Source of the DNA: a virus
Strand: one strand, 5' to 3'
Length of the DNA: 25,668 bases
UHGV virus genome: UHGV-0118908
Below the pieces are notes generated by a model. It searched no databases. It was not told the origin of the DNA and saw only the letters and a program-made list of their open reading frames with translations. This document shows, one piece after another, positions 7,906-20,667 of the stretch. The number at the start of each line of letters is the position of its first letter. Position 1 is the stretch's first letter. Position numbers and translations under genes: made by a program.

Positions 7906-9258
<1,353 letters not shown>

Positions 9259-9266
9259 GACATTCC

Positions 9267-9298
9267 CGCTCTTACACATCCCAGCCCTGAAAAAGGGC
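9267..9298 (+). promoter_or_regulatory. nutR site (boxA CGCTCTTA and boxB GCCCTGAAAAAGGGC)
   Basis: CGCTCTTACACATCCCAGCCCTGAAAAAGGGC immediately downstream of cro; essentially the lambda nutR sequence. Confidence 0.8.
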
Positions 9299-9377
9299 AT
9301 CAAATTAAACCACACCTATGGTGTATGCATTTATTTGCATACATTCAATCAATTGTTATCTAAGGAAATACTTACAT

Positions 9378-9656
9378 ATGCAACTTACAAGTACTCGCAA
9401 GAAAGCGAATGCAATTACAAGCAACATCCTGAATCGAATTGCTGTACGTGGTCAGCGAAAGGTTGCCGACGCGTTAGGGGTTAATGAATCGCAAATTTCG
9501 CGATGGAAAGACAGCTTCATCCCCAAAATGGGAATGCTTCTGGCTGTTCTTGAATGGGGTGTTGAAGACGAGGAGTTGGCGGAACTGGCTAAGCAAGTAG
9601 CCAGAATGCTGACAAAAGAAAAAGCCCCGAAGAACGGCGAATTCTTCGAGGCCTAA
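9378..9656 (+). CDS. cII: CII transcriptional activator; starts at internal Met of ORF-track entry 9318..9656
   Basis: MQLTSTRKKANAITSNILNRIAVRGQRKVADALGVNESQISRWKDSFIPKMGMLLAVLEWGV... closely resembles lambda CII (SQISRWK..IPK..MLLAVLEWGV). Confidence 0.85.
   Translation: MQLTSTRKKANAITSNILNRIAVRGQRKVADALGVNESQISRWKDSFIPKMGMLLAVLEWGVEDEELAELAKQVARMLTKEKAPKNGEFFEA
9411..9424 (-). promoter_or_regulatory. Candidate CII-binding site of pRE (TTGC-N6-TTGC on minus strand) inside the 5' part of cII
   Basis: Plus strand GCAATTACAAGCAA equals TTGCTTGTAATTGC on the minus strand; same position relative to the cII start as the pRE site in lambda. Confidence 0.5.
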
Positions 9657-9838
9657 TGTAGAAAGACTGGATCAATCCACAGGAGTAATTATGACAAAAC
9701 GTCGTAAGAAATACCAGGAAAAAGAAGAGATTCGACACCCTGATTCACCTGAGGGATTAGTGGTAGCCGCAGCAAATAACAGGGCGTTCGCAGAGCGCCT
9801 TGTTGGTGTTTACAGACTAGCCAAAGCAGGAGTGAAAC

Positions 9839-10729
9839 ATGGGCGTCGTTAAGTTAGCTGATTACAGGCATAACCCTGTACAACATCAGGAGGCATCCAG
9901 TATGGGGTATGTCTCTATACACCGCCAGTTTATGGACAGCAGGCTCTATAAGGACTCTCAGGCAGTACATCTTTGGCTTCACTTAATCCTCAAGGCTAAT
10001 CACGAATCTACTGTCGTCAATACGGATATCGGTCCGATAACTGTTGATCGCGGTCAGATGATAACTGGACGCCCGTCGCTGGTCAGAGAAACATTCATCC
10101 CCGACAACAAAGTTCGGAGCTTATTACGGACTTTTGAGTCGAAAGGGATGCTTAATATTTGCTCGATGGGGAAGAAATTTAGCCTGTTTACAATCGTTAA
10201 ATATGACGATTTTCAGGCAAAAAATTGTCCAACGGTTGTCCAACGGTTGTCCAACGCAAACACCAGTAATGGCGCGGCTCTCAGCGGAGATTGTCCAACG
10301 GTTGTCCAACGGTTGTCCATAAACAATAATATAAATAATATCTCTAATACTGACGTATTAGAGAGTGCCACAGCAGACAAAAAGTCTGACAAGAAAAAAC
10401 CTTCCGTTAGCTGTCAGGATGTTGTCGATGCTTACCACGAAATCCTTCCCGAAGCGCCAAGAATCCGCGCACTGAATGACAAGCGTAAAAACCAGATCCG
10501 AACGTTCTGGCGCAAAGCCGGAGTGATAACCCGCCAGCTTGACGGGCATGGGTTCACGATGCAGGACTGGAGAAATTATTTGAGCTACGTAGGCGAAAAT
10601 TGCCGATGGATGTTCGAAGAACGCCCAAACCATCAACGCGGAACCGTCTGGCACAAAAAGGGATTTGATTTCCTGCTTAACGACAATACCTACCTGAAAG
10701 TTCGTGAGGGTGAACACGATGACCGATAA
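9839..10729 (+). CDS. Replication initiator (O-like, iteron-binding) protein; alternative start at 9902
   Basis: 296-aa ORF with the iteron/AT-rich origin embedded mid-gene, followed by an overlapping helicase gene; AGGAG upstream of 9839 and AGGAGG upstream of the ATG at 9902. Confidence 0.7.
   Translation: MGVVKLADYRHNPVQHQEASSMGYVSIHRQFMDSRLYKDSQAVHLWLHLILKANHESTVVNTDIGPITVDRGQMITGRPSLVRETFIPDNKVRSLLRTFESKGMLNICSMGKKFSLFTIVKYDDFQAKNCPTVVQRLSNANTSNGAALSGDCPTVVQRLSINNNINNISNTDVLESATADKKSDKKKPSVSCQDVVDAYHEILPEAPRIRALNDKRKNQIRTFWRKAGVITRQLDGHGFTMQDWRNYLSYVGENCRWMFEERPNHQRGTVWHKKGFDFLLNDNTYLKVREGEHDDR
10225..10365. repeat. Replication origin: two clusters of three TTGTCCAACGG iterons followed by an AT-rich segment and a 22-bp palindrome
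   Basis: TTGTCCAACGG tandem x3 at 10225..10257 and x3 (last partial) at 10291..10320; then an AT-rich stretch with CTCTAATAC-tgac-GTATTAGAG; lambdoid ori architecture inside the initiator gene. Confidence 0.7.
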
Positions 10730-12155
10730 TTTTTATGCGCCGCCCCATAGCATCGAGGCAGAGCAGGCGGTTATTGGTGGATTGCTTCTGGATGATGACA
10801 GCAGTGAGCGCGTCCGGAAAGTTCTGGCGATGCTGAAGCCTGATTCATTTTACAGCCGACCACACAAAATCATTTTCGATGAAATAACCAGAATGCACCG
10901 GGAGCAAAAGCCAGTAGATGGGCTGACGCTTTTCGATGAACTGGATCGCAAATCATTAACGGCGTCTGTTGGCGGTTTTGCTTATATCGCTGAGATCGCA
11001 AAGAACACGCCAAGCGCCGCAAACATCGTTGCCTATGCAATGCAGGTTCGTGAAACCGCAATGGAACGCTACGCCATCAACCGCATGACTGAAGCGACGG
11101 AATTGCTCTATTCCCGCAACGGAATGACTGCAACGCAGAAGTACGAAGCTATTCAGGCGATTTTCACGCAACTGACAGACCATGCAAAAACCGGATCGCG
11201 TCGCGGACTTCGCTCATTTGGTGATGTCATGGAAGACTGGGTTAGCGACCTTGAGAAGCGTTTTGACCCGTCAGGCGAACAACGAGGAATGAGCACAGGG
11301 ATCCCATCGCTGGACAGGATGCTGTCACCGAAAGGTCTGGTGAAATGCTCTTTGTTTGTCATTGGCGCTCGCCCTAAGATGGGGAAAACGACGCTATACA
11401 GCCAGATGGCAATCAACTGCGCAGTGCATGAGAAAAAGCCTGCTCTGATGTTCAGCCTTGAAATGCCAGGTGATCAGATACTGGAAAAACTGGTAGGACA
11501 GAAGTCAGGTGTTAACCCGAATATTTTTTACCTTCCGGCGACAAATGACGCTGATGACGGCTATCAGGGTGATTACGATGGTGACTTCAACAGGGCGATC
11601 GAAACAGCCAATCGCTTGAGTGAAATCGACCTGCTTTACATCGACGACACGCCGGGATTATCTCTGGCTCAAATCGTCAGCGAAAGCCGTCGAATCAAGC
11701 GAGAAAAAGGATGTGTTGGCATGATTCTGGTCGATTACCTGACACTAATGACCGCTGAAAAGGCCGATCGCAACGACCTTGCTTACGGCATGATCACCAA
11801 AGGACTGAAGAACCTTGCCAAAGAGCTTGATTGCGTTGTTGTGCTTCTGACGCAGCTTAACCGCGCACTGGAAAGCCGAACCAATAAACGCCCATTACCA
11901 AGTGACTCACGAGATACAGGGCAGATTGAACAGGATTGCGATTATTGGGTGGGGATCCATCGTGAAGGTGCTTTTGATGACAATGTTCCACCTGGTGAAA
12001 CCGAACTAATCCTTCGTCTCAATCGTCATGGCAATACCGGCACGGTGTATTGCATTCAGGCAAATGGCGCTATTTATGACACAGACCAACAGTCTGCTGA
12101 AATTCGCCGCCGTGAACGCGAGGAACCGCAGTCCAAGAAGAAAGGAGGATTCTGA
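10719..12155 (+). CDS. DnaB-family replicative helicase (phage-encoded, P22 gene 12-like); ATG 10719 preferred over the GTG of ORF-track entry 10704
   Basis: N-terminal IEAEQAVIGGLLLD DnaB signature; Walker A GARPKMGKT; Walker B-like ILVDYL; overlaps the end of the initiator gene by 11 nt. Confidence 0.9.
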   Translation: MTDNFYAPPHSIEAEQAVIGGLLLDDDSSERVRKVLAMLKPDSFYSRPHKIIFDEITRMHREQKPVDGLTLFDELDRKSLTASVGGFAYIAEIAKNTPSAANIVAYAMQVRETAMERYAINRMTEATELLYSRNGMTATQKYEAIQAIFTQLTDHAKTGSRRGLRSFGDVMEDWVSDLEKRFDPSGEQRGMSTGIPSLDRMLSPKGLVKCSLFVIGARPKMGKTTLYSQMAINCAVHEKKPALMFSLEMPGDQILEKLVGQKSGVNPNIFYLPATNDADDGYQGDYDGDFNRAIETANRLSEIDLLYIDDTPGLSLAQIVSESRRIKREKGCVGMILVDYLTLMTAEKADRNDLAYGMITKGLKNLAKELDCVVVLLTQLNRALESRTNKRPLPSDSRDTGQIEQDCDYWVGIHREGAFDDNVPPGETELILRLNRHGNTGTVYCIQANGAIYDTDQQSAEIRRREREEPQSKKKGGF

Positions 12156-12184
12156 TGACCATCTACATCACTGAGCTAATAACA

Positions 12185-12213
12185 GGGGCTATTTACACAG
12201 TAGCCCTTTTTTA
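12185..12213 (+). terminator. Intrinsic terminator after replication genes (tR2-like position)
   Basis: GGGGCTA-tttacacag-TAGCCC followed by TTTTTTAT, immediately after the helicase stop. Confidence 0.55.
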
Positions 12214-12239
12214 TTGGATCGGAAGCGAGAGGTGAGAGT

Positions 12240-12509
12240 GTGAGCGAGCCGATTATGTCTCCTGACCTTTATTTAAAATATAGGTCTATTTGGGGGCACA
12301 GAAAAATGAAAGTTAATAGTTATAGATTCGACGATGCAACTCAATGGGTAACTAATTTCGGAAAGGTAAGAATAACTCCGCCGCAGTTTAGAAAACTCCT
12401 TTGCAACAAATGCGGAAGCGATAACTGGACAGATGATGGAAGAAACATGAATGAGTACTGCTGCGACTCATGCGGTCAGTACGTGATGGTTCAGGGCGAC
12501 GACGCTTAA
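12240..12509 (+). CDS. Hypothetical zinc-ribbon protein (CNKCGS...CCDSCG)
   Basis: ORF-track entry with GTG start (ATG at 12255 in frame); RBS-like GAGAGGTGAGAG upstream; two Cys pairs; no family recognised. Confidence 0.4.
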   Translation: MSEPIMSPDLYLKYRSIWGHRKMKVNSYRFDDATQWVTNFGKVRITPPQFRKLLCNKCGSDNWTDDGRNMNEYCCDSCGQYVMVQGDDA

Positions 12510-12549
12510 CACCCCAGCACGCTGATGGAGTCAAAGTGAAGGAGTAACG

Positions 12550-12996
12550 ATGAAGCAAATATATATGCTTCGCAACGAAGCAATCAGAAACAACACCATA
12601 GACGCAATACTCTCACTACCGATCGACGACAAGTCACCTCACGAAGTCCACGTTAAAGAACCCAAGCGGAGCAATTCTCAAAACCGCCTTATGTGGGCGT
12701 TATTGCAGGACGTATCACGTCAGGTGCTTTGGCATGGACAGAGACTTGCGCCGGAGGACTGGAAAGACCTGTTTACTGCCCTGTGGCTTAAGACCAAAAA
12801 ACTGGAGCAACGAAGTGTGCCTGGTATCGACGGTGGCGTTGTCATGCTTGGCGTGCGTACCAGCAAAATGCGAAAGGCCAGCATGACTGAGCTTATCGAA
12901 ATCATGTTTTGGTTCGGCTCAGAGCGCAACGTGCGGTGGAGTGATGACTACCGGCGAGAGTATGAATGGTCACAACGAAAAGGTAGGGCTGCATGA
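12550..12996 (+). CDS. ninB: NinB (Orf-family recombination mediator)
   Basis: 148-aa ORF; QNRLMWALLQDVSRQVLWHGQ...[24 protein letters not shown] parallels lambda NinB conserved positions. Confidence 0.8.
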   Translation: MKQIYMLRNEAIRNNTIDAILSLPIDDKSPHEVHVKEPKRSNSQNRLMWALLQDVSRQVLWHGQRLAPEDWKDLFTALWLKTKKLEQRSVPGIDGGVVMLGVRTSKMRKASMTELIEIMFWFGSERNVRWSDDYRREYEWSQRKGRAA

Positions 12997-13520
12997 CTAT
13001 CAAATCAAATACGCCAGCACACGACAAGGACTGCTGGCAAACGCCGCTTTGGCTTTTTGATGCACTGGATATTGAGTTTGGATTCTGGCTGGATTCGGCA
13101 GCGAGCGACAAAAATGCTCTGTGCGCTCACTGGTTAACTGAGGCCGACGACGCGCTCAATTCTGAGTGGGTAAGCCACGGTGCAATCTGGAATAACCCAC
13201 CGTACAGCAATATCAGGCCGTGGGTGGAAAAAGCCGCTGAGCAGTGCATACAACAGCGACAGACGGTAGTGATGCTTGTGCCAGAGGATATGTCTGTCGG
13301 ATGGTTCAGCAAGGCTCTGGAGAGTGTTGACGAAGTTCGTATTATCACTGATGGACGGATTAATTTTATCGAACCATCGACAGGGCTGGAGAAGAAGGGA
13401 AACAGCAAAGGTTCCATGCTGCTGATTTGGCGACCGTTCATCAGGCCTCGACGGATGTTTACTACCGTATCCAAAGCGGCATTGATGGCGATCGGGCAGG
13501 GCGTCAGGAGGGCGGCATGA
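12993..13520 (+). CDS. Phage Dam-type N6-adenine DNA methyltransferase (NPPY motif)
   Basis: 175-aa ORF; N-terminal [24 protein letters not shown] and IWNNPPYS match the phage N-6-adenine methyltransferase family; ATGA overlaps with ninB and ninE. Confidence 0.8.
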
Positions 13521-13699
13521 GACGACAGCGACGAAGTATCACCGACATCATCTGCGAAAACTGCAAATACCTTCCAACGAAACGCTCCAGAAATAAACGC
13601 AAGCCAATCCCAAAAGAATCTGACGTAAAAACCTTCAACTACACGGCTCACCTGTGGGATATCCGGTGGCTAAGAAATCGTGCGAGGAATACAAGGTGA
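13517..13699 (+). CDS. ninE: NinE; starts at internal Met of ORF-track entry 13427..13699
   Basis: [53 protein letters not shown]... agrees with lambda NinE as remembered; ATG overlaps the methyltransferase stop. Confidence 0.8.
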
Positions 13700-13869
13700 T
13701 TGACCCAAATCGAAGTTACGAACAAGAAAGCGTCGAGCGGGCTTTAACGTGCGCTAACTGCGGTCAGAAGCTGCATGTGCTGGAAGTTCACGTGTGTGAG
13801 CACTGCTGCGCAGAACTGATGAGCGATCCGAATAGCTCAATGTACGAGGAAGAAGACGATGGTGATTAG
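13696..13869 (+). CDS. ninF: NinF; GTG start overlapping the ninE stop (ORF-track entry 13654..13869 is over-extended)
   Basis: [47 protein letters not shown]... agrees with lambda NinF as remembered; GTGA overlap with the ninE stop; GAGGA 7 nt upstream. Confidence 0.7.
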
Positions 13870-14221
13870 CCGATACGGACAAATAACGTTTAAACATTTT
13901 CAAGACAATCCAACATGGGCTGCTGCGGCTGGATATGACTTTAATTATTTTGATTGTCTGTCAGTCGCATGTATTGCAACTACCAATGTTGCTAACAACA
14001 TAATCGATGAATTCTTGGATTTTCCAGACTATCAGGTCAGAGAGTTGCCTGCATTTTTTGTGAAAGTATCTGCTGCTACAGCTCTGTTATTTATTTTGTT
14101 ATTCGCATATCCATTGCTTGCCGTATTTGTTTATGTGAGATGCAAACACTCACAAAAGAAATACAGCGGAGAGCATACCGATATTACCAGCCAAAATATG
14201 CGTGTGTGGTTGAGGAGATGA
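13859..14221 (+). CDS. Hypothetical single-pass membrane protein (AT-rich insertion in the nin region)
   Basis: 120-aa ORF with GAGGAAG RBS; hydrophobic segment FFVKVSAATALLFILLFAYPLLAVFVYV followed by basic residues; visibly AT-richer than flanking nin genes; no family recognised. Confidence 0.5.
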   Translation: MVISRYGQITFKHFQDNPTWAAAAGYDFNYFDCLSVACIATTNVANNIIDEFLDFPDYQVRELPAFFVKVSAATALLFILLFAYPLLAVFVYVRCKHSQKKYSGEHTDITSQNMRVWLRR

Positions 14222-14243
14222 CAAGAGAAATGGGGGAGACGTC

Positions 14244-14533
14244 ATGCTAACCTACGCAAAGAAGCACGCGGCAGAGAATGCCAGGTTCGTATTTACGGCA
14301 TATGCAATGGCAATCCTGAAACTACAGTTCTGGCACATTACCGGATGGCTGGAATTTGCGGAACGGGAATGAAACCTGACGACCTGATCGGCGCGTGGGC
14401 TTGTAGCGCGTGTCAAGATGAAATCGACCGACGCACCCATAACCTCGACAACAAAGACGCCAGACTTTACCACCTGGAAGGCGTGATCAGGACGCAGGCG
14501 ATACTGCTGAAGGAGGGGAAGATTAAGCCATGA
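14244..14533 (+). pseudogene. DUF1364 (YbcO-like) gene with apparent 1-nt frameshift directly after its start codon; ORF-track entry 14345..14533 is the in-frame remnant
   Basis: ATG at 14244 with GGGGGAG RBS reads frame 0 for 43 codons to a TGA; the next frame encodes ANLRKEARGRECQVRIYGICNGNPETTVLAH...CSACQDEIDRRTH, which matches the YbcO/DUF1364 family (from memory), and has no start codon before the Met at 14345. Confidence 0.5.
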
Positions 14534-14892
14534 ACGAATATCAGTTTGTGCTTCCATACCCGCCGTCGGTGAACACCTACTGGCGAAGACGGGGAAGCCA
14601 ATACTACATCAGCGATAAAGGCCAGAAATACCGAAAAGACGTTCAGCAAATCATCCGCCAACTTAAGTTAGACATTTTCACCAAATCACGACTCCGCATC
14701 AAAGTCATCGCAGACGTTCCAGACTCCCGCCGCCGCGACCTCGATAACATCCTGAAAGGTTTACTCGACTCCCTTATCCACGCCGGATTTGCGGAAGACG
14801 ACGAGCAATTCGATGACATTCGCGTAATTCGTGGTGTGAAAGTACCAGGCGGACGGCTTGGAATAAAAATCACCGAACTGGAGAACGCATGA
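14530..14892 (+). CDS. rusA: RusA-family Holliday junction resolvase
   Basis: 120-aa ORF; PYPPSVNTYW...DSRRRDLDNILKGLLDSL...GGRL matches the RusA signature; ATGA overlaps on both sides. Confidence 0.85.
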   Translation: MNEYQFVLPYPPSVNTYWRRRGSQYYISDKGQKYRKDVQQIIRQLKLDIFTKSRLRIKVIADVPDSRRRDLDNILKGLLDSLIHAGFAEDDEQFDDIRVIRGVKVPGGRLGIKITELENA

Positions 14893-15077
14893 ACGCCACA
14901 ATTCAAACGATACCAGAGCTTCTTATCCAGACACGAGGCAATCAGACCGAAGTGGCGAGGATGCTTTCCTGCGCAAGAGGAACAGTGCTCAAGTACAACC
15001 GAGACAGCAAAGGTGAGCGTCACGTAATAGTTAACGGCGTCCTGATGGTCAAACAGGGCAAGAGGGGAAGACGATGA
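14889..15077 (+). CDS. ninH: NinH
   Basis: 62-aa ORF; GNQTEVARMLSCARGTVLKY...IVNGVLMV parallels lambda NinH; directly precedes Q. Confidence 0.8.
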   Translation: MNATIQTIPELLIQTRGNQTEVARMLSCARGTVLKYNRDSKGERHVIVNGVLMVKQGKRGRR

Positions 15078-15697
15078 GACTCGAAAGCGTAGCTAAATTT
15101 CATTCGCCAAAAAGCCCGATGATGAGCGACTCACCACGGGCTACGGCTTCTGACTCTCTTTCCGGTACTGATGTGATGGCTGCTATGGGGATGGCGCAAT
15201 CACAAGCCGGATTCGGAATGGCTGCATTCTGTGGTAAGCACGAACTCAGCCAGAACGACAAACAAAAGGCTATCAACTATCTGATGCAATTTGCACACAA
15301 GGTATCGGGGAAATACCGTGGTGTGGCAAAGCTCGAAGGAAATACTAAGGCAAAGGTACTGCAAGTGCTCGCAACATTCGCTTATGCGGATTATTGCCGT
15401 AGTGCCGCGACGCCGGGTGCAAGATGCAGAGATTGCCACGGTACAGGCCGTGCGGTTGATATAGCAAAAACAGAGCAGTGGGGGAGAGTTGTTGAGAAAG
15501 AATGCGGAAGATGCAAAGGTGTCGGCTATTCAAGAATGCCAGCAAGCGCCGCATATCGCGCTGTAACGATGCTAATCCCAAACCTTACTCAACCCACCTG
15601 GTCACGCACTGTTAAGCCACTGTATGACGCTCTGGTGGTGCAATGTCACAAAGAAGAGTCAATCGCAGACAACATTTTGAATGCGGTCACACGTTAG
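15074..15697 (+). CDS. Q: Late-gene antiterminator Q (lambda-type)
   Basis: 207-aa ORF MRLESVAKFHSPKSPMMSDSPRATASDSLSGTD...CRDCHGTGRAVD...CGRCKGVGYS agrees with lambda Q as remembered, including the zinc-binding Cys cluster. Confidence 0.9.
   Translation: MRLESVAKFHSPKSPMMSDSPRATASDSLSGTDVMAAMGMAQSQAGFGMAAFCGKHELSQNDKQKAINYLMQFAHKVSGKYRGVAKLEGNTKAKVLQVLATFAYADYCRSAATPGARCRDCHGTGRAVDIAKTEQWGRVVEKECGRCKGVGYSRMPASAAYRAVTMLIPNLTQPTWSRTVKPLYDALVVQCHKEESIADNILNAVTR
15361..15374 (-). promoter_or_regulatory. Candidate CII-binding site of antisense promoter paQ (TTGC-N6-TTGC on minus strand) inside Q
   Basis: Plus strand GCAAGTGCTCGCAA equals TTGCGAGCACTTGC on the minus strand, inside the Q coding region as in lambda. 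Confidence 0.4.
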
Positions 15698-15739
15698 TAG
15701 CATGATTGCCACGGATGGCAACATATTAACGGCATAATA

Positions 15740-15775
15740 TTGACTTTTTGAATAAAGTTGGGTAAATTTGACTCA
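15740..15775 (+). promoter_or_regulatory. Late promoter pR' (-35 TTGACT, -10 TAAATT) with overlapping qut region
   Basis: TTGACT-17 nt-TAAATT followed by TGACTCAACGATGG, matching lambda pR'/qut as remembered; immediately downstream of Q. Confidence 0.6.
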
Positions 15776-15803
15776 ACGATGGATAAATGCACTCGTTAAA
15801 TAA

Positions 15804-15833
15804 AGCCCTGAGTTAATAGCTCGGGGCTTTTTG
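15804..15833 (+). terminator. Intrinsic terminator close to pR' (tR'-like; would give a short 6S-like RNA)
   Basis: AGCCCTGAG-ttaatag-CTCGGGGCT (9-bp stem with one G.U) followed by TTTTT, roughly 30 to 60 nt downstream of the predicted start site. Confidence 0.5.
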
Positions 15834-16130
15834 CGTTTTAAGCACGGCCTTTCTGAAAGCACATCAAACCAAATACCAGACAGACAAAAATAATCACCTT
15901 ATCAGCTGTGGCTACGGTGCGGTGTGCTTTGCATAAAACAAAACCAGCTCAATGGCTGGCTTCGTGAAATCGGGTGGCAGGAGGTTGCGCTAACAACCTC
16001 ATGCCGTTTTGCCCGTGCATATCGGTCACGAACAAATCTGATTACTAAACACAGTAGCCTGGATTTGTTCTATCAGTAATCGACCTTATTCCTAATTAAA
16101 TAGAGCAAATCCCCTTATTGGGGGTAAGAC

Positions 16131-16454
16131 ATGAAGATGCCAGAAAAACATGACCTGTTAGCCGCCATTCTCGCGGCAAAGGAACAAGGCATCGGGGCAA
16201 TCCTTGCGTTTGCAATGGCGTACCTTCGCGGCAGATATAATGGCGGTGCGTTTACAAAAACAGTAATCGACGCAACGATGTGCGCCATTATCGCCTGGTT
16301 CATTCGTGACCTTCTCGACTTCGCCGGACTAAGTAGCAACCTCGCTTATATAACGAGCGTGTTCATCGGCTACATCGGTACTGACTCGATTGGTTCGCTT
16401 ATCAAACGCTTCGCTGCTAAAAAAGCCGGAGTAGAAGATGGTGGAAATCAATAA
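16131..16454 (+). CDS. S: Holin S (class I, lambda S107/S105 dual-start)
   Basis: 107-aa [65 protein letters not shown]... agrees with lambda S as remembered; the Met1-Lys-Met3 dual start is present. Confidence 0.9.
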
Positions 16455-16914
16455 TCAACGTAAGGCGTTCCTCGATATGCTGGCGTGGTCAGAGGGGACT
16501 GATAACGGACGACAGAAAACCAGAAATCATGGTTATGACGTCATTGTTGGCGGAGAGCTATTCACTGATTACTCCGATCACCCTCGCAAACTTGTCACGC
16601 TAAACCCAAAACTCAAATCAACAGCAGCCGGGCGCTATCAGCTTCTTTCCCGTTGGTGGGATGCCTACCGCAAGCAGCTTGGCCTGAAAGACTTCTCTCC
16701 AAAAAGCCAGGACGCTGTGGCATTGCAGCAGATTAAAGAGCGTGGCGCTTTACCGATGATTGATCGCGGTGATATCCGTCAGGCAATCGACCGTTGCAGC
16801 AATATCTGGGCTTCACTGCCGGGGGCTGGTTATGGTCAGTTCGAGCATAAGGCTGACAGCCTGATTGCAAAATTTAAAGAAGCGGGCGGAACGGTCAGAG
16901 AGATTGAGGTATGA
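16438..16914 (+). CDS. R: Endolysin R (lambda-type lytic transglycosylase)
   Basis: 158-aa [54 protein letters not shown]... agrees with lambda R as remembered. Confidence 0.9.
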
Positions 16915-17348
16915 GCAGAGTCACCGCGATTATTTCCGCTCTGGTTATCTGCATCATCGTTTGCCTGTCATGGGCTGTTAATCATTACCGTGATAACGCC
17001 ATAGCCTACAAAGAGCAACGTGATAAAGCCACATCCACAATCGCTGACATGCAGAAGCGTCAACGTGATGTAGCAGAACTCGACGCCAGATACACAAAGG
17101 AGCTTGCTGATGCTAACGCGACTATCGAAAGTCTCCGTACTGATGTTTCTGCTGGTCGCAAGCGCCTGCAAGTCGCCGCCACCTGTGCAAAGTCAACGAC
17201 CGGAGCCAGCAGCATGGGCGATGGAGAAAGCCCAAGACTTACAGCAGATGCTGAACTCAATTATTACCGTCTCAGAAGTGGAATCGACAAGATAACCGCG
17301 CAGGTTAACTACCTGCAGGAGTACATCAGGACTCAGTGCCTGAAATAA
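16911..17348 (+). CDS. Rz: Spanin inner-membrane subunit Rz (i-spanin)
   Basis: 145-aa ORF; N-terminal TM segment [18 protein letters not shown], then coiled coil; N-terminal half close to lambda Rz with a divergent C-terminal half; ATGA overlap with R. Confidence 0.8.
17104..17295 (+). CDS. Rz1: Spanin outer-membrane lipoprotein subunit Rz1 (o-spanin), embedded in the +1 frame of Rz
   Basis: ORF entirely within Rz in another frame; hydrophobic leader ending VASAC (lipobox-like) followed by a Pro-rich stretch, as in lambda Rz1; exact start uncertain. Confidence 0.6.
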
Positions 17349-17380
17349 TTTTTTTGCAAATCACAAAGTCCATTTAATGA

Positions 17381-17404
17381 GCCTCGCGATGCGGGGCTTT
17401 TTTA
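17381..17404 (+). terminator. Candidate intrinsic terminator after the lysis cassette
   Basis: GCCTCGC-gat-GCGGGGC (7-bp stem with one G.U) followed by TTTTTT. Confidence 0.45.
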
Positions 17405-17552
17405 CATCTGAATTTCACAGCGCATCTCACGCGCATATTACATCACCCGAGCCTTTCAGAAAGTTGAGCCTGAGAACTGCCGTATATGGTGGCGACCATC
17501 TCGGGACGGCTTTTCTGTGAGACAGGCTCACTTTCTAAAAGGTAAAGACGCT

Positions 17553-18071
17553 ATGAATCATCAATTGGCTAATCTCGATTTCCGGGACATGGTGGTTGTT
17601 TCTGGTGATCGCGTGATCACAACCTCCCGCAAGGTAGCAGCTTACTTCGACAAGCAGCATCACCACATCATTCAGAAAATCGAAAAGCTAGACTGTTCGG
17701 ATGAATTTCTAACCAGCAACTTTTCGCGGGTTACCTATGAACACAAGGGTAATCAGTATGTTGAATATGAAATTTCCAAAGACGGTGCGATGTACATCAT
17801 CATGTCGTTTACCGGCAAAAAAGCTGCCGCCATCAAAGAGGCGTTTATCAAAGCATTTAATTGGATGCGTGACAGGCTGATGGAGATGGCTCACTCATAC
17901 CAAAGAGAGCACAACGAGTTAATGCTGGAGTTCATGAAGGAAAAGGATGTTGCCAGTATGTCAGGACGCTTGCTGAACCGCTGGGGCAGGATCAAAAAAC
18001 CTCAACTCATAGCAAGAATCGAAAGGCTTGAGCAGCAGGCGCAAATATCGATCCCCGGACTGCCAAAGTGA
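17553..18071 (+). CDS. rha: Rha-family phage regulatory protein; ATG 17553 preferred over the GTG of ORF-track entry 17517
   Basis: VITTSRKVAAYFDKQHHHIIQKIEKL...NF...EYEISKDGAMYIIMSFTGKKAAAIKEAFIKAFNWM matches the pRha domain pattern (from memory); located between lysis and packaging genes as in P22-like phages. Confidence 0.55.
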   Translation: MNHQLANLDFRDMVVVSGDRVITTSRKVAAYFDKQHHHIIQKIEKLDCSDEFLTSNFSRVTYEHKGNQYVEYEISKDGAMYIIMSFTGKKAAAIKEAFIKAFNWMRDRLMEMAHSYQREHNELMLEFMKEKDVASMSGRLLNRWGRIKKPQLIARIERLEQQAQISIPGLPK

Positions 18072-18423
18072 CCATTCCAAAGCCCATCTACGGGTGGGCT
18101 TGATAATGAAACCGTGATTTACATCCCCACAATCCGGGTATGTAAAAGATAGTTCAGGCGAGAACAGATTTAACTAAGTCTGTGCACCACCAGTTGCGGC
18201 AGTACCACGAAACAACCCAAGCCAGTAAGTGGGGAAATAACACTGGCAGCCACTGAAAGATGAACCTCCTGCCTTATGGCAAAAAAGATTCTTTGTGGTG
18301 GCGGACTGATGGAAAGACATCGGTTATTGCAGAGACCATTCAATGAGTGGTCTCGACAATGGCTTATACCCTACACGGGATAACTTAACTGATATCCCTT
18401 TTAACGGATAAACGGAGCCAACA

Positions 18424-18666
18424 ATGGCAGAGATTATTCCCATGACTGAAGAACAGAAATTCCAGTTAGAGATTTACAAACTGGTCATGAACCAGAACGC
18501 AGCCGCAGAAGAAGCATTTCAGTTCATTGGTACTGACGAGCTGAAGCTTGAGCTATTTAAAATTCACTTCCAGTCAGGCGGCGCTAATTCAGATATCACG
18601 ACCCGCACTATCGAAGCGGTGCGTAAATCGAAGGAAGCGTTAGACCTGTTCACTACCGGAGCATGA
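18424..18666 (+). CDS. Hypothetical 80-aa protein upstream of the small terminase gene (P22 orf80-like position)
   Basis: ORF-track entry; ACGGAG RBS 8 nt upstream; no family recognised. Confidence 0.45.
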   Translation: MAEIIPMTEEQKFQLEIYKLVMNQNAAAEEAFQFIGTDELKLELFKIHFQSGGANSDITTRTIEAVRKSKEALDLFTTGA

Positions 18667-18701
18667 CGCTCAACCTGAAATAACAACTAAGTGAGATGAA
18701 T

Positions 18702-19190
18702 ATGGCAGCACCAAAGGGCAACCGATTTTGGGAGGCCCGCAGTAGTCATGGGCGAAATCCTAAATTCGAATCGCCTGAGGCGCTGTGGGCTGCTTGTTGT
18801 GAATACTTCGAGTGGGTGGAAGCTAACCCGCTATGGGAGATGAAGGCGTTCTCGTATCAGGGTGAAGTGATACAAGAGCCTATCGCCAAGATGCGAGCGA
18901 TGACCATTACCGGCCTCACTCTGTTCATTGATGTGACGCTTGAAACATGGCGCACATATCGCCTGCGAGAAGATTTATCTGAAGTCGTTACGCGAGCAGA
19001 ACAGGTCATCTACGACCAGAAATTCTCTGGCGCAGCCGCTGACCTTCTCAACGCTAACATCATCGCCCGTGATTTGGGCCTCAAAGAGCAGTCGCAAGTT
19101 GAAGACGTGACACCTGATAAGGGAGATCGCGATAAGCGACGCTCTCGTATCAAGGAGCTATTCAACCGTGGAACTGGACGCGATTCTTGA
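18702..19190 (+). CDS. Terminase small subunit (P22 gp3-type); ATG 18702 preferred over 18696
   Basis: [50 protein letters not shown]... agrees with P22 gp3 as remembered (162 aa from the second ATG). Confidence 0.85.
18969..18990 (+). other. Candidate pac site for headful packaging, inside the small terminase gene
   Basis: GAAGATTTATCTGAAGTCGTTA matches the P22 pac consensus as remembered, at the expected position within the gp3 homologue. Confidence 0.45.
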
Positions 19191-20667
19191 TAACCTGAGC
19201 GACGAAGAGCAAATCGAGTTGCTCGAGCTACTCGAAGAAGAAGAGAACTACCGGAACACACACCTGCTATATGAATTTACGCCATACAGCAAACAGCGTG
19301 AGTTCATCGACGCCGGGCATGACTATCCAGAGCGCTGTTTTATGGCTGGTAACCAGCTTGGTAAGTCATTTACTGGTGCTGCTGAAGTCGCGTTTCACCT
19401 TACAGGGCGTTATCCGGGCACAAAAGGCTATCCTGCTGATGGTAAATATGGCGGTGAGTGGAAAGGTAAGCGTTTCTATGAGCCTGTTGTCTTCTGGATT
19501 GGCGGCGAGACAAACGAGACTGTAACCAAAACGACTCAACGCATCCTGTGCGGTCGTATTGAAGAGAATGATGAGCCGGGCTACGGTTCAATACCGAAAG
19601 AGGACATCATTAGCTGGAAGAAGTCTCCTTTCTTTCCGAACCTTGTTGATCATCTTCTGGTTAAGCATCACACGGCTGATGGCGTTGAAGATGGCATTTC
19701 AATCTGCTACTTCAAACCATACTCGCAAGGCCGCGCTCGCTGGCAGGGTGACACAATCCACGGCGTGTGGTTTGACGAAGAGCCACCATACAGCATTTAT
19801 GGCGAAGGTCTTACCCGTACCAACAAATACGGTCAATTCTCAATTCTGACGTTTACCCCGCTGATGGGGATGTCTGACGTTGTTACCAAGTTCCTGAAGA
19901 ATCCCAGCAAGTCGCAGAAAGTGGTCAACATGACCATCTATGACGCTGAGCACTACACAGACGAACAGAAAGAGCAAATCATCGCATCCTATCCCGAGCA
20001 TGAGAGAGAGGCGCGTGCTCGCGGTATTCCTACGATGGGTAGCGGTCGAATCTTCCAGATACCGGAAGAGACGATTAAGTGTCAGCCGTTCGAGTGTCCT
20101 GATCACTTCTACGTAATTGGCGGGATGGATTTCGGATGGGATCACCCACAGGCGCAAGTTCAGCTTTGGTGGGATAAGGACGCAGACACAATCTACGTTT
20201 CACGCGTGTGGAAGGCGAAAGAAAAAACAGCCGTTCAGGCATGGGGAGCCGTTAAATCATGGGCGCATAAAGTGCCAACCGCATGGCCTCATGACGGAAA
20301 CCAGCATGAGAAGGGCGGCGGTGAGCAGCTCAAAGGGCAGTATGCCGACGCTGGTTTTATGATGTTGCAGGAGCATGCGACATGGCCTGATGGCGGTAAC
20401 GCTGTGGAGCCTGGCATCACTGAATTGCGCGACATGATGCTCGATGGTCGCTTCAAAGTATTCAACACCTGTGAGCCATTCTTTGAGGAGTTCCGCCTCT
20501 ATCACCGTGATGAAAACGGGAAAATCGTCAAGCTTAACGACGACGTTCTCTCAGCCGTTCGCTATGCATACATGATGCGCCGCTTCGCAAAAATGATGCG
20601 CGACATCAAAAAACCAAAAGAGAAAAAGATACCAGCCCCAATCAGGCCCATCGCACGGAGAACTTAA
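19168..20667 (+). CDS. Terminase large subunit (P22 gp2-type), GTG start
   Basis: 499-aa ORF overlapping the small-subunit gene end; AGGAG upstream of the GTG; length and sequence fit P22 gp2; stop overlaps the portal start. Confidence 0.9.

Follow-up and report, generated by a model that had tools for sequence, protein, structure and literature searches.

A frameshifted, probably non-functional ybcO-like allele in the nin region of a P22/Sf6-like Escherichia prophage

The ybcO-like (DUF1364) gene in the nin region of a P22/Sf6-like Escherichia prophage lacks one G at its start codon, and this lesion is very probably a heritable loss-of-function pseudogene allele that belongs to a young haplotype. 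The window analyzed here is the whole 25,668-nucleotide stretch of the viral genome UHGV-0118908. It represents a P22/Sf6/IME10-like lambdoid prophage with cI/cro/cII, O/P-like and DnaB genes, the nin region and Q, together with the lysis, terminase, portal, scaffold and coat genes. The gene order ninF, phrog_2638, ybcO, rusA, ninH and Q places ybcO at its usual lambdoid nin position. DUF1364/YbcO proteins are treble-clef zinc fingers and predicted His-Me finger (HNH) nucleases, which are classified in group 7 with DUF968, and their genes typically adjoin RusA and Q (PMC4999995, PMC5714182). A structure of the family has been solved (3g27), the nuclease activity is a prediction, and literature searches on YbcO function retrieved no experimental or biochemical work. 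The biological weight of the allele is small, as it adds one more case of a lambdoid prophage in which a dispensable accessory gene has decayed.

Reading frames at the ybcO start and conserved residues of YbcO

Direct reading of the window around the start gives GGGGGAGACGTC-ATG(14244)-CTA-ACC-TAC-GCA-AAG…, in which the sequence 5' of the ATG is …GAAATGGGGGAGACGTC and the codons from the ATG onward are ATG CTA ACC TAC GCA AAG AAG…. The start region contains the following features.

14232..14238, plus strand: Shine-Dalgarno-like GGGGGAG (direct reading), whose GGAG ends 5 nt before the ATG at 14244
14244..14246, plus strand: native ybcO start codon, with one G of the ancestral ATGG gone immediately after or within it (ATGGCT > ATGCT)
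14244..14372, plus strand: out-of-frame 42-codon ORF from the native start (MLTYAKKHAAENARF…ERE*), from the ORF list
14246..14533, plus strand: YbcO/DUF1364 body, codons 2-96 and stop, without a start codon of its own (direct reading, Pfam, PDB)

The initial annotation had described the ATG at 14244, next to the ribosome-binding site, as opening a short out-of-frame ORF, and this frame indeed runs for 42 sense codons to a TGA at 14370-14372; a Pfam search with the 42-codon ORF gave no match. It had also placed the YbcO body (ANLRKEARGRECQ…) one base off, with no start before the Met at 14345, which the ORF reading confirms. The frame from G14246 reads GCT AAC CTA CGC AAA… (ANLRKEARGRECQVRIYGICNGNPETTVLAH…) and stays open to the TGA at 14531-14533, with the full translation ANLRKEARGRECQVRIYGICNGNPETTVLAHYRMAGICGTGMKPDDLIGAWACSACQDEIDRRTHNLDNKDARLYHLEGVIRTQAILLKEGKIKP*. 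Between the in-frame stop at 14219-14221 and the ATG at 14345, this frame holds no ATG, GTG or TTG; the first in-frame start of the body is codon 35 (ATG 14345), and a complete ORF of about 94-97 aa is lacking. Because all close intact relatives read ATGGCTAAC where the window has ATG-CTAAC, the lesion is a deletion of one G out of the GG that spans codons 1 and 2, and insertion of one G restores M-A-N-L-R-K, as had been proposed. With the ribosome-binding site and ATG kept and the G lost from ATGGCT, ribosomes would read the 42 out-of-frame codons and stop at 14370-14372.

After restoration of the G, the translation of 96 aa reaches 147 bits in the comparison with Pfam PF07102 YbcO (cut-off 29.9), which assigns it to the family and supports the view that a YbcO/DUF1364 gene is frameshifted right after its ATG. 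Residues 1-95 of the restored protein align with PDB 3g27 (YbcO of prophage 82) with E = 5e-39, and the 62-aa ORF starting at 14345 scores 75.5 bits against PF07102, covering Pfam YbcO positions 34-91. The repaired translation is aligned end to end with the YbcO proteins of DLP12 and 82 (PF07102; 3g27), which have the same length (96 aa) and whose genes occupy the same place immediately upstream of rusA, ninH and Q. Unlike these proteins, the window's YbcO has its start out of frame and Gln in place of His58, and a full-length product is not expected. The homologues are 96 aa long in 114 of 119 cases and start with MANLRK (family pattern M-[AST]-[NK]-L-R-K); alignment with DUF1364 relatives thus sets their beginning at M-A-N-L-R-K, not at the equivalent of 14345. 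A 96-aa DUF1364 protein starting ATGGCTAAC is annotated in E. coli APEC20/16, in strain ws5-3 and in phage HK75.

Regarding the conserved residues, Cys13, Cys21, His32, Cys54 and Cys57 are all present in the window's YbcO body, and the full conserved Cys/His set (C13, C21, H32, C54, C57, H58) is broken at its last member.

14414..14416, plus strand: CAA, encoding Gln58 in the motif C54-x-x-C57-H58, by C>A at 14416 (CAC > CAA)

His58 is invariant in 107/107 cluster representatives (71-98% identity) and in 114/114 full-length IMG/VR genes. A conserved β-hairpin His of the family, given without a residue number, has been superimposed on the catalytic His of His-Me nucleases (PMC4999995). His32 is most likely this histidine, and the putative zinc-binding or catalytic roles of single residues are deduced from the published descriptions of the fold (PMC4999995, PMC5714182). 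A full-length Q58 protein (P0187) is present on 911 contigs named Salmonella, and Q58 also occurs with an intact ATGG in two IMG/VR loci (L041 and L042) with another upstream context. As full-length Q58 genes exist, Q58 is separable from the frameshift, and it is probably the older of the two changes. Given these genes, His58Gln may leave the protein active. Q58 may be a widespread variant that is possibly catalytically dead.

Linked changes in the upstream gene and distribution of the haplotype

Two changes linked to the frameshift were absent from the description in the initial annotation, namely His58Gln and a premature TGA in the upstream gene, which encodes one hydrophobic helix.

13859..14221, plus strand: nin-region gene phrog_2638, annotated without a function, with the hydrophobic stretch AATALLFILLFAYPLLAVFVYV; 130 aa in relatives and 120 aa here
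14073, plus strand: haplotype-specific T>C (Val72Ala in phrog_2638); T in every intact relative, whereas the lesion-bearing loci all match the window
14219..14221, plus strand: premature TGA in the context TGA-C, by C>A at 14221; the intact relatives all have TGC (Cys121)

The relatives of phrog_2638 end with ...RRCQEKWGRRHG* (…CQEKWGRRHG-TAA), in which the TAA lies inside ATGGCTAA, and the intact 130-aa and 96-aa genes overlap by 8 nt. In the window, the TGA at 14219-14221 removes the last 10 codons of phrog_2638 and lies 25 bp upstream of the frameshift, sharing its frame with the YbcO body. Because the G is removed, the phrog_2638 frame is in register with the YbcO body, and since phrog_2638 normally ends inside ATGGCTAA, the loss of the G alone would fuse the two genes in frame. 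The TGA would separate them again and prevent such a fusion.

The closest intact allele, that of E. coli APEC20/16 (L001; WP_000237096.1, WP_000002228.1), is 99.3% identical to the window over 601 bp and shares its upstream gene, junction and downstream rusA. It reads TGC/ATGG/CAC where the window reads TGA/ATG/CAA, and thus encodes the 130-aa and 96-aa proteins. Over the 675 bp of 13859-14533 the window and this allele differ at 6 positions, 4 of which are specific to the lesion haplotype: T14073C (V72A), C14221A (TGA), the G loss and C14416A (H58Q). All four changes are carried by 12/12 copies of the haplotype, which are identical over 13859-14394 and differ only at the 3' end of ybcO. The two variants found there are both known from intact alleles as well, suggesting that they come from recombination with intact alleles. 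In this upstream context, the TGA and the G loss always occur together (12 copies), and either change is seen in 0/22 intact relatives; a search of IMG/VR for an allele with the TGA and an intact ATGG found none.

The G-loss junction was found in 11 other public loci, distributed over IMG/VR, five NCBI Escherichia assemblies (GCA_048025155.1, GCA_026082515.1, GCA_051129485.1, GCA_020168615.1 and GCA_019839805.1), an ENA gut metagenome and Logan runs. All 10 places examined (10/10) show the ATGCTAAC junction with the TGA, the G loss and Q58, and the upstream protein truncated to 120 aa has exact matches in 25 contig blocks. This distribution bears on whether the lesion is a sequencing or assembly error in a genome that truly reads ATGGCT and has an intact gene. 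Single-base indels are a common assembly artefact, and a short-read contig from a human-gut metagenome (L032 in ERZ916005 of ENA, matching window 8859-19221), which probably represents the same strain, shows 100% identity with the window along 10.4 kb. Against an error, however, stand the 11 other loci from IMG, NCBI isolates, ENA and Logan, which share the junction and the two linked substitutions on backgrounds that are ~2% diverged and differ in gene content. The GG is no long homopolymer, and the 120-aa and 80-aa products are both in NCBI as Escherichia proteins with multiple records. An error is thus extremely improbable.

The exact junction in the IMG/VR genome UViG_2778261457_000006 lies in a core (13691-14394) that is identical to the window, whereas outside this core the two differ by ~2%. 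In other lesion loci the DnaB-type helicase measures 821, 478 or 458 aa, the nin region has Dam or PAPS reductase, and in L033 and L039 ybcO and rusA are separated by an HNH_3 gene. Since the same junction occurs with such differing replication and nin modules, the allele is heritable, and recombination has carried it from one prophage mosaic to another. In the favored reading, the frameshift travels with Cys121>TGA and His58Gln on one young haplotype, spread by homologous recombination into several prophage mosaics, and the phage would tolerate it because nin-region genes are dispensable. As for the HNH_3 insertion itself, it encodes a homing-endonuclease-like protein of 174 aa (L033:5672-6196 and L039:5474-5998), and CFSAN064035 (H14) has a similar insertion close to this position.

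The allele is rare. It is absent from all 14 complete E. coli genomes in RefSeq that share the window's upstream gene (0/14), IMG/VR contains 1 lesion locus against at least 120 intact starts, and the allele is on ~10 contigs, compared with at least 1000 for each intact protein. Exact-pattern scans for the G-loss junction found none in genome_contigs (one genome per species) and none in the JGI metagenomes (JGI samples only); owing to this composition of the two collections, the empty scans say nothing on the reality of the allele.

The position of the lesion coincides with a boundary between modules. Among the 23 IMG/VR loci with a close upstream gene (≥96% identical), 22 read ATGGCTAA and 1 matches the window; from that junction, 18 of those 22 go on into ybcO, and 4 lead to a ninG-type gene. 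Most phage records begin to resemble the window exactly at 14246, and ATGGCTAAC is directly preceded by 13 different upstream sequences in IMG/VR (loci L044-L123). As many upstream modules abut it, the ybcO start codon is a mosaic module boundary. Lambdoid module junctions can therefore fall exactly at the shared ATGGCTAA start/stop overlap, and a one-base loss at such an overlap inactivates a gene while joining it to the adjacent one. Phages sharing the upstream junction have either the ybcO-rusA pair or ninG, which fits a recombination-related accessory role. The short ATGGCTAA sequence (window 14244-14251) is itself a shared mosaic junction that combines the start of ybcO or ninG with the stop of the upstream gene.

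Recurrent loss of the same G and possible selection

The same G is missing at the ybcO start of a further E. coli locus (L043:1312-1806, in GCA_002109925.1, ADKD01000013.1; P0002), where one G is gone from the same ATGG (TAAATGCTAACC). In contrast to the window, L043 has a different upstream module, an intact His58 and no compensating stop. Its 63-codon upstream ORF runs in frame into YbcO and is annotated from a TTG as a 101-aa protein, which is the predicted type of fusion between an upstream gene and YbcO; the intact form of this upstream context is found at 22 IMG/VR loci. Comparison of the two loci shows that the same dinucleotide has been hit at least twice, in the window haplotype and in L043. 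Such a repeated loss might point to selection against the gene or to a mutational hotspot instead of purely neutral decay.

Broken forms of ybcO are common in public data and include the frameshifted tails P0006, P0019 and P0032, as well as the 62-aa N-truncated forms P0146 and phrog_7109. In addition, P0092 (E. coli), a 117-aa 'nuclease domain-containing protein', joins YbcO residues 1-70 in frame to the C-terminal part of RusA and is a further decay product of the ybcO-rusA pair, formed by a deletion fusion.

An adaptive explanation would hold that the inactivation of ybcO and the truncation of its neighbour were selected, the nuclease or the fusion being harmful in some hosts. It would account for the recurrence of the loss and its spread over mosaics: the same G is gone in two upstream contexts, the haplotype is on at least 4 different backgrounds, all four derived changes are non-synonymous or disruptive, and other broken forms are on record (P0006, P0019, P0032 and P0092). 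The frequency of ~1% or less, however, argues against a general advantage, recombinational spread is normal for any nin-region segment, and four of four non-synonymous changes is not significant (~0.3 expected under neutrality). Selection for loss is very unlikely, and the haplotype would represent neutral decay.

Potential products, recoding and annotation of the allele

Regarding the products that the allele could still yield, two in-frame ORFs and one potential slip site are present downstream of the native start.

14258..14261, plus strand: A_AAG tetramer, the sole candidate site for a -1 slip by which ribosomes would pass from the ATG frame to that of YbcO
14345..14533, plus strand: 62-codon ORF from the first in-frame ATG (ORF list, Pfam)
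14369..14533, plus strand: 54-codon C-terminal ORF, whose ATG shares bases with the TGA that ends the 42-codon ORF (ATGA 14369-14372)

The initial annotation had suggested a truncated product starting at 14345. The corresponding 62-codon ORF exists, but the likeliest truncated start is rather the ATG at 14369, where reinitiation after the 42-aa peptide is possible. At most an N-terminally truncated fragment would be made, most plausibly the one of 54 aa formed by such reinitiation, and Prodigal-type callers list a 54-aa PF07102 gene in L032 and L038-L040. Cys13 is missing from all of the fragments, and those of 54 and 62 aa are without Cys21 and His32 as well. Without these three residues and with Gln58, the 54-aa fragment would not be expected to be an active nuclease. 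A protein look-up of the 62-aa ORF product found nothing, because gene callers choose either ATG 14369 (54 aa) or ATT 14291 (80 aa).

The possibility of recoding, by which full-length or fused YbcO would still be made at a low level, was considered from the geometry of the region. A -1 slip at A_AAG would enter the YbcO frame at Lys6 and give MLTYAK-EARGREC…. The YbcO body continues the frame of the TGA at 14219-14221, which is followed by C, and read-through of this stop would give a fusion of the upstream protein to YbcO. UGA-C is a weak context for termination. No copy has a stop within the 95 codons of the YbcO frame, which is compatible with ongoing use; this openness is uninformative either way, as the core of the haplotype is invariant and thus too young. 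The window's A_AAG is in the frame-restoring register, as at the -1 sites of E. coli (dnaX and IS3/IS911; A_AAA_AAG or A_AAG with a stimulator), and in E. coli A_AA.G is the tetramer most prone to shifting, reaching up to 5.6% only with a pseudoknot (PMC4066793).

In contrast to the dnaX and IS3/IS911 sites, however, the window has no slippery heptamer in the frame of ATG 14244, where there is a bare A_AAG only. It also has no stimulator, since neither a Shine-Dalgarno sequence nor a hairpin or pseudoknot was found at the right spacing and the fold of 14262-14341 is no better than that of shuffles (z = 0.04). Tetramers without a stimulator shift barely above background in E. coli (0.147% vs 0.112%; PMC4066793). 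Nor is the shifted arrangement conserved: at least 120 homologues in IMG/VR start from an ordinary ATG, and 22/23 relatives with the same upstream context are unshifted. Moreover, A_AAG is the ancestral in-frame Lys-Glu of all intact alleles, implying that nothing has evolved for slippage, and the allele is rare and young and has His58 changed too. A programmed frameshift was rejected on the bare tetramer, the z of 0.04 and the unconserved arrangement. Recoding in general is permitted by the geometry and finds no positive support, so that it is very unlikely.

A further reading, in two versions, regards the three-lesion haplotype as a selected state and not as neutral decay. In one version, ybcO, and with it a toxic fusion of the membrane protein to the nuclease, would have been switched off because the nuclease harms some hosts, with the G loss coming first and the TGA being compensatory; in the other, UGA-C and A_AAG would let through a trickle of the fusion or of a near-full-length Q58 protein with a non-catalytic DNA-binding role. 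Little credence is given to this reading, and the pseudogene allele remains the preferred one.

The allele is already represented in public databases as truncated proteins without a pseudogene flag, and it is of a known kind. NCBI lists an 80-aa 'DUF1364 domain-containing protein' that begins at ATT 14291 (14291-14533; P0158, 8 contigs) with no frameshift flag, and the 120-aa truncated upstream protein as a normal hypothetical protein (P0122). The value of the present analysis for annotation lies here, as both products are carried unflagged as ordinary Escherichia proteins. In PHROGs, the 42-aa peptide matches phrog_14831, the antisense ORF 14252-14557 (minus strand) matches phrog_10845 and the 62-aa YbcO matches phrog_7109; these three families are most likely shadow or mis-called ORFs of highly conserved DNA. 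The antisense ORF 14252-14557 was rejected as a real gene, having no Pfam match and a PHROG match that is best explained as a shadow ORF.

Downstream of the lesion, the next gene is unaffected.

14530..14892, plus strand: rusA (Holliday junction resolvase), intact, whose ATG overlaps the ybcO stop (ATGA 14530-14533)

It keeps its own start and ribosome-binding site, with AAGGAGG 13 nt upstream of the ATG. The overlap with ybcO belongs to a chain of stop/start overlaps that can be followed through the nin region from 13517 to 15697, comprising Dam/NinE (ATGA 13517-13520), ybcO/rusA (ATGA 14530-14533), rusA/ninH (14889-14892) and ninH/Q (15074-15077), and the chain breaks only at the two lesions.
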